Shown piece by piece: positions 133 through 4,188 of a stretch of DNA of 4,234 bases (position 1 is its first letter; the number at the start of each line of letters is the position of its first letter). The notes under the pieces are model-generated. The model worked only from the letters and a program-made list of their open reading frames with translations, had not been told where the DNA came from and ran no database searches. Where the stretch lies: NCBI RefSeq assembly GCF_056746865.1, contig NZ_JBWKMP010000009.1; one strand, given 5' to 3'. The translations under genes and the position numbers were made by a program. The DNA is from a plasmid.

Positions 133-408
133 ATGAGCAGAACGCTCGAACAGAAGATTGCCGAAGCTGAGGCCAGATTACAGCGCCTGAAGGCGAAGAG
201 CCGGAGCCTGGACACTGCGCAAAAAGTCATTGTGGGAGCAGCCATGCTGGCGAGGGTACGGAGGCCGGAAGAGGCGCAACTGCGTGCGTTCCTGCTCCAG
301 TTCCTGCGAAAGGAAGTCACAAGACAGGCCGATGTGAACCGGCTACAACCACTGATTAACGAGCTGGAGAAGCTACCAAGACCACCTGCGAAACCGCAGA
401 ACGGATAA
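133..408 (+). CDS. mobC: MobC/TraD-family relaxosome accessory protein, 91 aa (MOBQ mobilization accessory protein)
   Basis: ORF with an SD. The N-terminal coiled-coil-like segment (EQKIAEAEARLQRLKAK) and central motif QKVIVGAAMLARV resemble RSF1010 MobC (about 94 aa; recalled motif RKVLVGAMILAKV). Small size and apparent divergent placement relative to mobA across oriT fit. Homology is recalled, not searched. Confidence 0.75.
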   Translation: MSRTLEQKIAEAEARLQRLKAKSRSLDTAQKVIVGAAMLARVRRPEEAQLRAFLLQFLRKEVTRQADVNRLQPLINELEKLPRPPAKPQNG

Positions 409-574
409 GCCCCGGCGCGTAAGTGCCACATGCACCACCGGACGCCTTTGCGCTTCCTCGCACATTCGCTCGCTACGCTCGGTCATGAGGCTGCGGCGAG
501 CGCTACCACCGCAATCACGAGGAAACCAGCGCCATTGCTGGGCGGAACCGGAAAAACCGCAGGAACGCCAACAG

Positions 575-620
575 CTCAAAAAAGCGCCGAAAAGGCGCTG
601 TTATCTGATAAGGCTATTTG
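575..620 (-). other. ori: ColE2-type origin of vegetative replication (Rep binding and primer synthesis site), abutting and overlapping the rep stop codon
   Basis: The minus strand reads AAATAGCCTTATCAGATAACAGCGCCTTTTCGGCGCTTTTTTGAG. The block AGCCTTATCAGATAACAGCGCC (plus coordinates 594-615) matches what I recall of the ColE2-P9 minimal origin, and ColE2 ori is known to lie immediately 3' of rep. Recalled, not aligned. Confidence 0.6.
577..599 (-). terminator. Hairpin AGCGCC-GAAAA-GGCGCT followed on the minus strand by T6; probable intrinsic terminator for rep, embedded in the ori
   Basis: Seen in sequence: 6-bp GC-rich stem (583-588/594-599) with a 5-nt loop. On the minus strand it is followed directly by TTTTTTGAG. 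It lies 15 nt downstream of the rep stop codon. Confidence 0.45.
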
Positions 621-1522
621 TGCATTGCCCAATTACGGATCGTATTTCGATGTACATCCAGCATCGCCGCAATAGCTTTCTGAGAATATCCATTCTCCAG
701 CATACATAGCGCCATGAAACGCTTGTCCTCGTAGGCTTCGCCTTTAGCAAGGCCACCTTTCCGGCCTCGAGCGGCCTGTACAGCGGAAAAGCCTTCCGGT
801 GAGAATTTTCTGTGCGTGTATTTCGCAATGCTCTTGCCAATAGCCCGGCATTCAGCCAGTGAAAGAGGAACGGGAAGCGATGCGTTGTACATTTCGACAC
901 GCTGGATCACGGCATCAAGCCACTGTGAGAATGCTGGCCATCCCTGACGAATCGCTCTGTAAGCCCATTTACGCGTTATTTCGAACAGGTGGCAGTTTCG
1001 CCCCAGCCCGTAATGTTTATCGACGCTACGACGCTCTGAGGCGCTCAAATCGAGATAATCAGCCAGTTCATCGAGGGTATAGGCTTCCTCGCGCCACTCC
1101 ATCACCTGCCATTCCAGGTGGAACGGATTTTTGCAAATCAGTCCGCTGTAGTTCACATCTGCGTCAAGTTTCTCACACAGCGCACGTTCAATTGCAGCGG
1201 CGTATTTCAGCACCTTAACCGACGCATCAGGCGCGGTTCTCACGGCAAGATTGAGCGCGTATAGCAGGTGAGCGTGCCCATTCACGGGATTTTTTACGGT
1301 GATGTTCGGCGCGGGGGCGTTCCGGTCGCTCCAGTCAATCGCAGCCCCCTCGCGGTCAACGTCAAAAACCAGCCAGTGTTGCGCATGTGGCTGGTTCTGC
1401 TGAATGTACCGCGCAAGAAGCGCACGCCCTTTGCCGGAGATGCGAAGGCCGAAAGCGGGATCATCCGTGTGATAGGGACGGTGAGGTAAATTTTCTTCGA
1501 AGTATTGAAGCGCGGCGCTCAT
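614..1522 (-). CDS. rep: ColE2-type plasmid replication initiator Rep, 302 aa (plasmid-specified primase with C-terminal HTH DNA-binding region)
   Basis: A 302-aa ORF matching the size of ColE2-family Rep (about 35 kDa). The C-terminal stretch SQKAIAAMLDVHRNTIRNW is HTH-like. The conserved ColE2 ori block sits immediately downstream. SD GGAAGGA lies about 9 nt upstream of the ATG. Overall similarity to ColE2/ColE3 Rep is from memory. Confidence 0.9.
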   Translation of the reverse strand: MSAALQYFEENLPHRPYHTDDPAFGLRISGKGRALLARYIQQNQPHAQHWLVFDVDREGAAIDWSDRNAPAPNITVKNPVNGHAHLLYALNLAVRTAPDASVKVLKYAAAIERALCEKLDADVNYSGLICKNPFHLEWQVMEWREEAYTLDELADYLDLSASERRSVDKHYGLGRNCHLFEITRKWAYRAIRQGWPAFSQWLDAVIQRVEMYNASLPVPLSLAECRAIGKSIAKYTHRKFSPEGFSAVQAARGRKGGLAKGEAYEDKRFMALCMLENGYSQKAIAAMLDVHRNTIRNWAMHK

Positions 1523-1968: not shown

Positions 1969-4188
1969 TCACATACTCATGCCCCGGTAATGTCCGGGGC
2001 GTCGTTGTTGTTGCCTGTGCTGTTCGTCCCGCTTCCATTCATGCCAGGTCTGATTAAATCCGAGTTGACGGAAGAGATAATCCGGCATCTCTTCCGGTTT
2101 GTGGACAGCAGCCAAAAGCCTGTCATGATGGCCTTTGAGCCGGAACTGCATCAGGTGCGGTTCCGGTGGGTACGGAGTATCCGCATCATGGTTTATAGCT
2201 TCTCCGTAACCTGCCAGGCATACCCCGTTCTCCGTGATGGTGCTGACTATCAGATGACTGTAATCCGGCGACGGAAGCGCAAGAACGGGACGCAGCCCGT
2301 CCTCCTGACGCACAAATCCGACAAGCACTTCCTCCGGCCCTTTGCACAACAGCAGATTCAGCGTCCTGCTGTTTCGCTCTGTCGAAAATACAACGGGCAT
2401 GAGTTGCTCCGGTGCCGCATAAGCGGTGACGTCCACCCGGTGCGCAGACGGCAGCGGAGAGGCTACGGGCCTGCGGTCGTCGCTGAAATAAAAATTATCC
2501 GGCCAGTGATGCGGCAGCGCCGGAAAACCGTAAGAGGGCCACCCCTGGCGCATCTGTTCCAGTACATGCCGGACCGTCGCACCGGAATACATTCTCACAC
2601 GCTCAGGCCGCGCCATCGTCTCATGAGATTCTGGCATTCCCTCACGTATATCCGAGACCATCACAGCCCCGCCTGGCGACAGGTAAACATTCACCGGGTC
2701 ATGAACACTCTGGGGGTAATGCGCCAGCTCATCACCCCATACCGTGAATTCTCCGGCTCTGTTACTCAGCATCATGTAGCGGGTTATCCTGCCCGTTCCC
2801 GGCTCTCTGGCACGCCCCAGCCCCGTAATAACCCCGGCTAATGCCGTTTCACGGCTCAGGCGATGGTTATCATGGTGTTTCAGCCGTGCGTCATATTCCT
2901 GTTCCTTCCGGCGCGCTTCCGCTTCGGCTTCCTCCCTGCGCCGCTCCGCTTCCCGTGCTGACAGTTTTTCTTTCAGCTCTGCCATTCCCGGCGAAATCCA
3001 CGTATTCCACTGCGTTTCAAAGGCCTGACGACGGGCGGGAATGTCCCGTTCTTTCACGGCCCTGTAGGTGCGGCGAAGAGATTCAATCTGTTTCTCGAGT
3101 TTCCAGAAGCGGAGTTGTCTTTTGCGGTATTCCGGTTCAGCCCATGTCATCAGGGGAAGCTCTGACAGGATGGACGCTACCGGACGGGCTTTTCTGAGTC
3201 CGGTCATCTCTTTTTCGAGAATATCCCGCTCTTTCACCAGCGCATTCCCCTCACGTTTGATGTCGTTTGCCTTCCCGTTCATCGCCACGAACTCCGGTGT
3301 CATCTCCCATGCGTTCCCGCATTCCTGCGGCAGTGTGGCAATGAATTCCCGCAGGGTATCCGCTGAGGCATTCGCGGCGGGAATGGTCAGATTAAGGGCT
3401 TCCGCTGCACGACGTGCGGCATCGCTGAGTTCCCGTTTCCGCACGTTCTCCTGTACCTGGATGACTGCCAGCCTTGTGCGGGAAACCTGTATTTCCAGGT
3501 TAAGGCTGTTAATCAGGCGGTTCTGCTCACCGCGTTCTGTTTCCATGCCCCGTTTTTCCATCGCACAGGCAGCCTTTCCGAGGTGAAGGCCCGGCGCTTT
3601 CTCCAGTCCCTGACGCTCGTATGAACGATGGTCTATCTCTTCCTGGTAGCCGGCGTTCGCAAGCGCTCTGTTCGCATGGTCAGCCCATGATGCGCGCCAC
3701 GTCTCGGCGAGTGCCCGGTCGTTCCAGTCCCTGACCTTTCCTGCGAATCCCGTTTCCCCGACAGCTCTCGTGGTCAGCATGATGTGTGCATGGGGGTTGG
3801 TCCGGTCCATATGATGGAACGCCACATCGGCAATCATGCCCCGACTGACAAAGTTTTCCCGGACAAAAGCGAGAACGGCCTCCCGTGCGGCCTCGCGGGA
3901 AATCTCACGGGGAATGGCGAGTTCAATCTCCCTTGCCAGCTGGGAGTTCCGGCGCTGTTCGGCTTTCTCGACCGCATTCCAGAGAACGGAACGGTCACCA
4001 CACCAGGACGGTGCATTCACAGGGGTGAGAATGACCGCATCATCAACGCCGCGTTTACGGGTGTAATCGTGGGTTAATCCGGTACGGTCATCGGGTATGA
4101 CAGAGCCGGAACGGTAGGCAGCAGAAGCAACGGCACTGTAGCCGTTTTTTCGCGAAATGATTTTCATGCTGAGATGATAAATCGCCAT
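1969..4188 (-). CDS. mobA: MOBQ-family relaxase MobA (MobA/MobL-type), 739 aa: N-terminal relaxase domain, charged coiled-coil linker, about 295-aa C-terminal domain of unknown function
   Basis: The N-terminus MAIYHLSMKIISRKNGYSAVASAAYRSG closely resembles RSF1010 MobA (MAIYHLTAKTGSRSGG...), with the catalytic Tyr at residue 25 (codon 4114-4116). His-rich metal-binding motif HHMDRTNPHAHIM is at residues 125-137 (about 3778-3816). The charged linker spans residues about 405-440. The C-terminal domain (about 1972-2856) was not recognized. Confidence 0.9.
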   Translation of the reverse strand: MAIYHLSMKIISRKNGYSAVASAAYRSGSVIPDDRTGLTHDYTRKRGVDDAVILTPVNAPSWCGDRSVLWNAVEKAEQRRNSQLAREIELAIPREISREAAREAVLAFVRENFVSRGMIADVAFHHMDRTNPHAHIMLTTRAVGETGFAGKVRDWNDRALAETWRASWADHANRALANAGYQEEIDHRSYERQGLEKAPGLHLGKAACAMEKRGMETERGEQNRLINSLNLEIQVSRTRLAVIQVQENVRKRELSDAARRAAEALNLTIPAANASADTLREFIATLPQECGNAWEMTPEFVAMNGKANDIKREGNALVKERDILEKEMTGLRKARPVASILSELPLMTWAEPEYRKRQLRFWKLEKQIESLRRTYRAVKERDIPARRQAFETQWNTWISPGMAELKEKLSAREAERRREEAEAEARRKEQEYDARLKHHDNHRLSRETALAGVITGLGRAREPGTGRITRYMMLSNRAGEFTVWGDELAHYPQSVHDPVNVYLSPGGAVMVSDIREGMPESHETMARPERVRMYSGATVRHVLEQMRQGWPSYGFPALPHHWPDNFYFSDDRRPVASPLPSAHRVDVTAYAAPEQLMPVVFSTERNSRTLNLLLCKGPEEVLVGFVRQEDGLRPVLALPSPDYSHLIVSTITENGVCLAGYGEAINHDADTPYPPEPHLMQFRLKGHHDRLLAAVHKPEEMPDYLFRQLGFNQTWHEWKRDEQHRQQQRRPGHYRGMSM

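Follow-up and report, generated by a model that had tools for sequence, protein, structure and literature searches.

A conserved block between mobC and the ColE2-type origin of a small MOBQ4 plasmid, probably a primosome assembly site of the ssiA type

What is the role of a GC-rich stretch without a convincing gene that lies between a mobilization gene and a replication origin? The question is raised by a plasmid of 4,234 bp (NCBI RefSeq assembly GCF_056746865.1, contig NZ_JBWKMP010000009.1), hereafter the window, by which we mean the whole stretch of DNA analysed; it is a complete circular plasmid with a ColE2-type (Col156) replicon and belongs to MOBQ4. Positions 409-575 separate its mobC-like gene from its ColE2-type origin. 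A preliminary description, made from the letters of the sequence, had noted this segment as a non-coding GC-rich spacer between convergent mobC and rep with no assigned function, and had offered as candidate roles a single-strand initiation (ssi) or priming signal for lagging-strand synthesis, a transcriptional insulator and a small RNA. The spacer is real (GC content 64.7% vs 55.4% plasmid-wide) and the two genes do converge around it. We regard the part from 417 to 502 as probably a primosome assembly site of the ColE1 ssiA type (phiX174-type, PriA-dependent) that serves the ColE2-type origin. This is supported by homology, by a placement that is constant in side, orientation and distance with regard to two unrelated types of origin that depend on DNA polymerase I (Pol I), by conservation above that of the neighbouring genes and by covariation in one helix. 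The minus strand would be the active one, and priming from it would depend on PriA. The priming role survives in this form, on grounds of homology and geometry and not of the repeats that had been cited for it, and for 417-502 instead of the whole of 409-575.

The block of 86 nt consists of a left motif, GCGTAAG, and a core (Table 1). When positions 380-640 were compared by BLAST with 72,556 plasmids, the block matched at least 5000 plasmid records, with ColE1, pMB1 and p15A origins among them, most of the matches being limited to 417-506 or 445-504. The whole spacer is kept in close relatives. Escherichia coli p6_020022 (NZ_CP032885.1; Col156 replicon, MOBQ relaxase) is identical to the window plasmid; pColE2-P9 (NZ_KY348421.1; 89% identity over 409-565, its core differing from the window at two positions, 462 and 490) and ColE9-J (88.6% identity) have the same layout of mobC, spacer, origin and rep, which is also common to pCE10B and a Shigella sonnei plasmid. 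ColE1-type plasmids are 76-79% identical over 417-506, with the core at 452-501 nearly invariant, and in those bearing Rop the block is situated between rop and the origin with RNA II/RNA I; in one of them (L004) it follows rop by about 200 nt and precedes the ColE1 origin motif GCGTTTTTCCATAGG by 111 nt. On large plasmids the block lies 0.4-0.8 kb from a replication initiator gene; in an IncFIB plasmid and a Klebsiella IncFII/IncR plasmid it separates rep from sopA/parA-like genes, in an Enterobacter plasmid it precedes repA, and it also occurs in the repE-sopA spacer of F and of bacterial artificial chromosome (BAC) vectors.

In an alignment of copies from unrelated replicons, the flanks are wholly divergent and GCTTCCTCGC..T..CTCGC..GCTCGGT..G.CTGCGGCGAGC is nearly invariant, with GCGT(A/C) about 28 nt to its left. 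The GCGT of the left motif is invariant in ColE2-, ColE1-, F-, IncFII/R- and Enterobacter-type copies, and the motif is present in most of 72 non-redundant copies. When identity to the window was computed by region over 12 ColE2-type spacers (Table 1), the core proved to be as conserved as the origin and more conserved than the neighbouring gene ends. The preliminary description had suggested looking for conservation in related plasmids, and for 417-502 it runs deep.

How is the block placed with respect to origins? The pattern CTCGC-N3-GCTCGGT-N7-CTGCGGCGAGC was scanned in 100,044 species-representative genomes and gave 89 loci, which together with the loci in hand made 101 copies; origin motifs were searched for within 400 nt on each side of the core and in both orientations. 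Of the 101 copies, 53 had the ColE1 origin motif at 71-121 nt from the core, without exception on one side and in a single orientation, and 12 had the ColE2 origin motif GCTGTTATCTGATA at 65-95 nt, placed and oriented like the ColE1 motif. The other three configurations of side and orientation were met in none of the 65 informative cases among the 101 copies searched. In the window plasmid the origin motif, which occupies 599-608 and is 100% conserved in the ColE2-type origins compared, starts 95 nt from the end of the core. In L004, RNA I is on the plus strand further on, and therefore RNA II and the leading strand run leftwards. A Xenorhabdus plasmid has kept the ColE2-type rep, the origin and the core (65 nt from the origin) with a type IV coupling protein gene, not mobC, as the left neighbour. 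pVCM04, whose Rep is 39% identical, has its origin-like ATCAGATATAC repeats on the other strand, upstream of rep, and the core and a CTTACGC motif are found about 90 nt beyond the last of these repeats in the polarity of the AGA strand; in a Salmonella plasmid with 77% Rep identity, 95 nt separate the core and the origin. The element is a part of the replicon and not of the mob module.

How could such a site be exposed at a ColE2-type origin? The triplet AGA is found in the origin on the minus strand only (606->604), and the primer made by the ColE2 Rep is ppApGpA; because of these two points, the leading strand would run leftwards into the spacer and the parental minus strand would be displaced. 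In the proposed mechanism, Rep would bind the origin and make this 3-nt primer on the AGA strand, and Pol I would extend it leftwards, away from rep and into the spacer, so that a D-loop would form in which the parental minus strand is displaced. Some 100-190 nt further on, this strand would expose 5'-GCTCGCCGCAG..ACCGAGC..GCGAG..GCGAGGAAGC..CTTACGC-3', which would fold and be recognised by PriA. PriA with PriB, DnaT and DnaC would then load DnaB, and DnaG would prime lagging-strand synthesis. In polarity, the displaced strand would match the one displaced in ColE1-type plasmids, since RNA II is on the minus strand in L004. ColE2 replication is known to start from a short primer that is made by the Rep primase and extended by Pol I, its ColE1 counterpart using RNA II plus Pol I (PMC4538821; PMC4980987), and the minimal ColE2 origin is a 32-bp sequence downstream of rep (PMC6856555). 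In ColE1-type plasmids, ssiA (n'-pas) lies just downstream of the RNA/DNA switch and is exposed by Pol I extension; PriA uses it to bring in DnaB and DnaG for the lagging strand, and it is retained in pUC-type origins (PMC3167613). An ssi of 82 nt about 60 nt from oriV has been described in ColE1-like plasmids (PMC5935869). For ColE2 itself, ssi sequences were reportedly found by experiment (Nomura et al. 1991, Gene 108:15, whose title is cited in PMC6856555), and they may well correspond to the block 417-502. The element is of a common kind that has been described before in plasmids and is not annotated in databases: the lack of an assigned function noted in the preliminary description is true of database annotation, in which the spacer carries no feature, and untrue of the literature.

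Does the core have a secondary structure? In 60 distinct cores, covariation was examined at positions left free by the search pattern, and it concerns helix P1, whose arms are listed in Table 1. The pair 464-486 is A-T in 44 of the 60 cores, G-C in 15 and unpaired in one, and the pair 465-485 is C-G in 34, T-A in 24 and unpaired in two; the haplotypes of the arms (AC/GT, AT/AT and GT/AC) are complementary in every case. The Watson-Crick fraction of P1 is 0.66. With slid partners it does not exceed 0.34, and in 2000 column shuffles it was 0.50 +/- 0.02 and never reached 0.66. All five P1 positions are paired in ColE2-type copies (CTCAT/ATGAG). Because the independent changes are few, this covariation is supportive, not decisive. 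Position 462, within the 5' arm, is A in the lineage of this plasmid and T in all other ColE2-type copies (CTCGCACATTCG vs CTCGCTCATTCG), a private T-to-A change that costs the window one P1 pair by turning T-A into an A-A mismatch. The inverted repeat of the preliminary description forms a second possible helix, P2, which gives no covariation evidence because 469-473 and 496-500 are invariant and forced by the search pattern. Nesting of P1 and P2 is not possible, and they would be alternatives or parts of a pseudoknot.

Could the block be without function here, either a patch of homology derived from recombination between plasmid modules or a vestige carried with the origin? The same 50-nt core stands by many unrelated replicons in thousands of plasmids and could therefore be a crossover point, several distant ColE2-type replicons do without the block, and the minimal ColE2 origin as published has 32 bp (PMC6856555). 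However, decay would not be expected to leave conservation above that of the neighbouring genes (0.88-0.99 vs 0.41-0.56), compensatory changes in the helix, or a strict side, orientation and spacing to the origin in 65 of 65 informative cases, so that a relic is decidedly improbable.

The repeats to which the preliminary description had drawn attention do exist, mostly one base away from where they had been placed: CGCTCGC is at 467-473 and GCGAGCG at 496-502, CGCTCG at 467-472 and 476-481, and GGAAC at 544-548 and 562-566. Their frequency is at the level of chance. Of 1000 dinucleotide-preserving shuffles, 46% contained an inverted repeat of 7 bp or longer with a loop of 3-60 nt, and 82% contained a direct repeat of 6 bp within 30 nt. 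On its original, repeat-based grounds, the observation of the spacer is no more than chance.

It had also been thought that the spacer might act through transcription, as a small RNA gene or as an insulator or terminator between convergent mobC and rep. The convergence of the two genes, a possible hairpin at 467-502 and a weak Rfam match to sX9 would fit such a role, but a scan of 300-700 on both strands found no sigma-70-like promoter, and in a scan of the whole window against Rfam at a permissive threshold nothing credible was found in the spacer, the sX9 match (421-484; 21.8 bits, E=0.77, the gathering score being much higher at 44) being the only one there and at chance level. A terminator scan found none inside 409-575, and the block has no terminator on either strand; an insulator is not needed because the rep terminator is a separate hairpin at 583-599 by the origin. 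In addition, the block occurs in plasmids without convergent genes around it, and altogether a transcriptional role appears very improbable. That the spacer encodes a small protein has a practically negligible probability. Three open reading frames (ORFs) of 68-81 codons overlap it, 430..675 (+), 485..709 (+) and 373..579 (-), but none has a Pfam match, two of them cross the origin into rep on the opposite strand, and relatives carry 1-nt and 12-nt indels that disrupt the frames; the peak of conservation is the 50-nt block common to non-coding ColE1 origin DNA. The earlier judgement that no convincing ORF is present holds.

What of the remainder of the spacer? The linker 503-577 between the putative priming signal and the origin has no explanation beyond spacing. 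For 500-582 in ColE2-type copies, no consensus structure was found on the plus strand, and the minus strand gave a weak, poorly supported hairpin. A stretch within the linker (531-560, GCCATTGCTGGGCGGAACCGGAAAAACCGC) is passingly like the ColE1 origin (GCGTTGCTGGCGTTTTTCC) and was considered as a vestigial ColE1 origin; this homology was rejected because the positions do not correspond and MAFFT leaves the two sequences unaligned.

Another alternative starts from the mobilization genes. Between the divergent mobA and mobC, an inverted repeat ACAATC..GATTGT at 4-41 on the plus strand is followed by ATAAGTGCGCAC; this resembles the oriT hairpin plus nick sequence of RSF1010/R1162, and it would imply that the plus strand is transferred with mobC leading. 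The element might then be a leading-region ssi that primes the complementary strand on the transferred strand after conjugation, instead of or besides the vegetative lagging strand. The spacer begins about 370 nt from the putative nick site (ATAAGTGCGC after the inverted repeat, in the arrangement of the RSF1010 oriT) and would thus enter the recipient early. Moreover, in the plasmid pEC224_6 the element stands after mobC but inverted, so that the polarity active in ColE1 falls on the mobC-sense strand, the one presumably transferred. In the window, however, the strand presumably transferred is plus and the polarity active in ColE1 is on minus; side, orientation and distance to ColE1 and ColE2 origins are fixed whatever the mob genes; the element persists by ColE2-type origins without an adjacent mobC; and the nick site and transferred strand are themselves putative. 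This is the most serious of the rivals, and it is quite improbable.

The sister plasmid pEC224_6 (L100, NZ_CP018942.1, 3535-3620) is a pIGWZ12-like MOBQ41/Rep_3 plasmid in which the ssi block comes right after the mobC stop, inverted relative to mobC and about 250-350 nt from a DnaA box, an AT-rich region and four 22-bp iterons. This copy has one extra base between CTCGC and GCTCGG, and its version of helix P1 is CCCA/TGGG. One may speculate that the core is a portable, orientation-switchable module of single-stranded DNA recognised as a pseudoknot, in which P1 encloses two copies of GCTCG and one of these pairs with CGAGC further downstream (P2). It would be flipped for different jobs: in ColE2- and ColE1-type plasmids it would act on the displaced strand at the vegetative origin, and in the MOBQ41/Rep_3 sisters, at the same position after mobC, it would be inverted onto the transferred strand to prime complementary-strand synthesis in the recipient. 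We consider this broader idea unlikely.

Several points weigh against a PriA-dependent site at 417-502. The loci used for conservation and geometry were retrieved by a pattern derived from the core (for the ColE2 set, also by the origin motif), so that invariance at the pattern positions is partly built in; positions outside the search pattern are equally conserved, and a set selected by BLAST gives the same picture. Folding of each strand as single-stranded DNA, which the preliminary description had advised, gave energies ordinary for shuffled sequences, with z-scores of -0.6 to +0.8 for both strands of the whole spacer, the 73-nt core and the ColE1 counterpart. A hexamer 5'-AAGCGG-3' on the active strand, a feature of low weight, is common to n' sites; the minus strand here reads GAGGAAGCGCAAAG, that is AAGCGC, ColE1-type copies having AAGCGG and F-type copies AAGCAA or AAGCGA, and of this region only CGAGGAAGC is conserved family-wide. 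In iteron plasmids (F-type, and the pIGWZ12-like pEC224_6) the orientation to the origin is not obviously of the lagging-strand type. The active strand and the direction of ColE2 replication are drawn from the ppApGpA primer and the sequence.

The distribution among ColE2-type plasmids belongs to the same side of the balance. The core was not found in the stretches examined of sampled Edwardsiella, Klebsiella, Aeromonas, Acinetobacter and Neisseria ColE2-type plasmids, although for a 2.7-kb Klebsiella plasmid the stretch examined ends soon after the origin and the case is not informative. Because the element is absent from some ColE2-type replicons and the minimal origin is 32 bp, it is accessory and not essential. 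Its deletion would be expected to affect the efficiency or the intermediates of replication, not viability, and since the site is accessory, the absence of an effect of deletion on replication, a part of what the preliminary description would have taken as a refutation, is too strict a test. The plasmids concerned have features of their own. In Edwardsiella pEI2 (L102, 954-1143), an element of the IS256 family lies about 150 nt beyond the ColE2-type origin, with no ssi core in the stretch examined, and in the 2.7-kb Klebsiella plasmid (L103, 894-1815) an inserted gene separates the origin from rep. A 6.1-kb Klebsiella plasmid (L105, 1030-1150) and a 7.7-kb Aeromonas plasmid (L106, 2215-2325), both distant plasmids of the ColE2 type, have no ssiA-type core in these stretches and share another conserved block after the origin, composed of GCGGATCTTGGCGAGG, a GC hairpin and GC(A)GTTATCC(A/C)CGGAGC with the DnaA-box-like TTATCCACG; it may be another type of priming or helicase-loading signal.

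The features of the window are collected in Table 1. The plasmid carries only mobA, the mobC-like gene and rep, and the origin, read on the minus strand as CCTTATCAGATAACAGCGCC, comes directly after the rep stop codon. A 305-codon ORF antisense within mobA (1924-2841, +) is probably spurious, in GC-rich coding DNA. Upstream of rep, a hairpin at 1487-1610 has weak matches to the Rfam family PK-repBA on both strands (27.3 and 22.8 bits; gathering score 45) and is probably the control region of the ColE2 antisense RNA I and the rep mRNA leader. A good candidate for a cer-like XerC/XerD site, with a 6-bp centre, GGTACGTACAA-CAGGAG-TTATGGTAAAT, lies at 1678-1705 on the minus strand; a multimer resolution site has been reported for ColE2-type plasmids, and this is probably it. 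No such site (XerC arm ..GCGTACAA, centre of N6-8, XerD arm TTATGGTAAAT) was found in 409-575.

Table 1. Coordinates of features in the 4,234-bp window, with regional identity over 12 ColE2-type spacers where computed.
Feature	Position	Strand	Basis or remark
mobC-like ORF	133..408	+	left neighbour of the spacer
Spacer between mobC and origin	409-575		167 bp; flanking mobC and rep convergent
Probable ssiA-type single-strand initiation signal (primosome assembly site homologue)	417..502	- (probable active strand)	homology, geometry
Left motif GCGTAAG (family consensus ~GCGTMAG)	417..423		alignment of copies
Conserved core GCTTCCTCGC-N7-CTCGC-N3-GCTCGGT-N7-CTGCGGCGAGC(G)	452..502		near-invariant across unrelated replicons
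Core, regional identity	449-501		0.88-0.99
Helix P1, 5' arm	461..465		covariation with 485-489
Helix P1, 3' arm	485..489		covariation with 461-465
Inverted repeat P2, 5' arm CGCTCGC	467..473		repeat of the preliminary description, corrected
Inverted repeat P2, 3' arm GCGAGCG	496..502		repeat of the preliminary description, corrected
Linker between probable priming signal and origin	503..577		505-558 moderately conserved in ColE2-type plasmids only; not common to ColE1-/F-type copies
Linker, conserved part, regional identity	505-558		0.70-0.82
Linker, variable part, regional identity	559-578		0.49-0.62
rep intrinsic terminator	577..599 (hairpin 583-599 + T-run)	-	AGCGCC-TTTTC-GGCGCT plus TTTTTT; adjoins origin
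Origin, regional identity	589-618	-	0.86-1.0
ColE2-type origin	596..627 (approximate, by alignment with pColE2-P9)	-	primer triplet AGA 606->604
mobC and rep 3' ends, regional identity	flanks	+/-	0.41-0.56
ColE2-type rep	614..1522	-	Pfam Replicase, PriCT_1 and helix-turn-helix (HTH) domains
MobA/MobL relaxase gene mobA	1969..4188	-	Pfam MobA_MobL

What does the identification mean? It adds little new biology, as the 'unassigned' spacer of a common clinical Col156/MOBQ4 plasmid would be a textbook accessory site of replication. The block nevertheless stands unannotated in thousands of plasmid records, and because it keeps to one side and one orientation with respect to ColE1- and ColE2-type origins, it is a simple sequence marker of the direction of the leading strand. 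Its inversion in sister plasmids and its absence from distant ColE2-type replicons give minor clues to the gain, loss and re-use of accessory priming sites. The core is also a sensitive flag for contamination of genome assemblies by pUC, p15A or BAC vectors. Vector sequence (pUC, p15A or BAC) accounts for many of the matches in Streptomyces, Mycolicibacter, cyanobacteria and metagenome bins, and core copies with identical flanks of vector type were seen at L012, L015, L020, L026, L035, L036, L057, L059, L069, L070 and other loci, in assemblies that include Streptomyces, Mycolicibacter, Alicyclobacillus, Raphidiopsis, Leisingera and several metagenome bins. The pUC-, p15A- or F/BAC-type copies in these assemblies are most likely cloning-vector contamination. 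About 50 papers, too, print the core within vector sequence.

How does the block compare with known priming systems? Sites of the phiX174 type are defined by function and not by a sequence in common, and the likeness to the phiX174 n' (PriA) site lies in the proposed mechanism only, in which folded single-stranded DNA would activate PriA and nucleate the primosome. In biochemical terms, a PriA-dependent site is defined by stimulation of the PriA ATPase and by rifampicin-resistant complementary-strand synthesis on single-stranded DNA that depends on PriA, DnaB, DnaC and DnaG. Among other single-strand initiation signals near plasmid origins are sites of the G4 type, which are read directly by DnaG, and ssiA and ssiB of RSF1010, which require the plasmid primase RepB' (PMC4538821). 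The window plasmid differs from RSF1010 in having no RepB'-type primase gene, the Pfam domains being MobA_MobL in MobA and Replicase, PriCT_1 and HTH in Rep. Closer in sequence is a primosome assembly site near ori2 of mini-F, reportedly described by Imber, Low and Ray in 1983 and present in BAC and fosmid vectors. Its core is the same and, in F-type and Klebsiella plasmids, is flanked by the rep/incC region on one side and sopA-like partition genes on the other, but the site lies beside an iteron origin, about 0.4-0.8 kb from rep, and its orientation is not simply that of a displaced strand downstream of a start. The ssi of Nomura et al. 1991 is from the same plasmid family as the window. The ssiA of ColE1/pBR322 (rriA, n'-pas, the L-strand factor Y site 'pas-BL') and its counterpart in p15A/pACYC184 are homologous to the block, with 76-79% identity over about 90 nt and a near-identical core, and they likewise lie 70-120 nt downstream of the leading-strand start extended by Pol I, in the same orientation. 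The two systems differ in the priming of the leading strand, by the 3-nt primer of the ColE2 Rep primase here and by RNase H-cut RNA II in ColE1; in helix P1, fully paired in ColE2-type copies (TCAT/ATGA) and with a 2x2 mismatch in ColE1-type copies; and in the DnaA box (TTATCCACA) that ColE1-type plasmids have between ssiA and the origin, none being found in a search of 380-640 of the window. By sequence and position, the block is a member of the ColE1 ssiA / n'-pas family, together with the p15A and mini-F ori2 sites.

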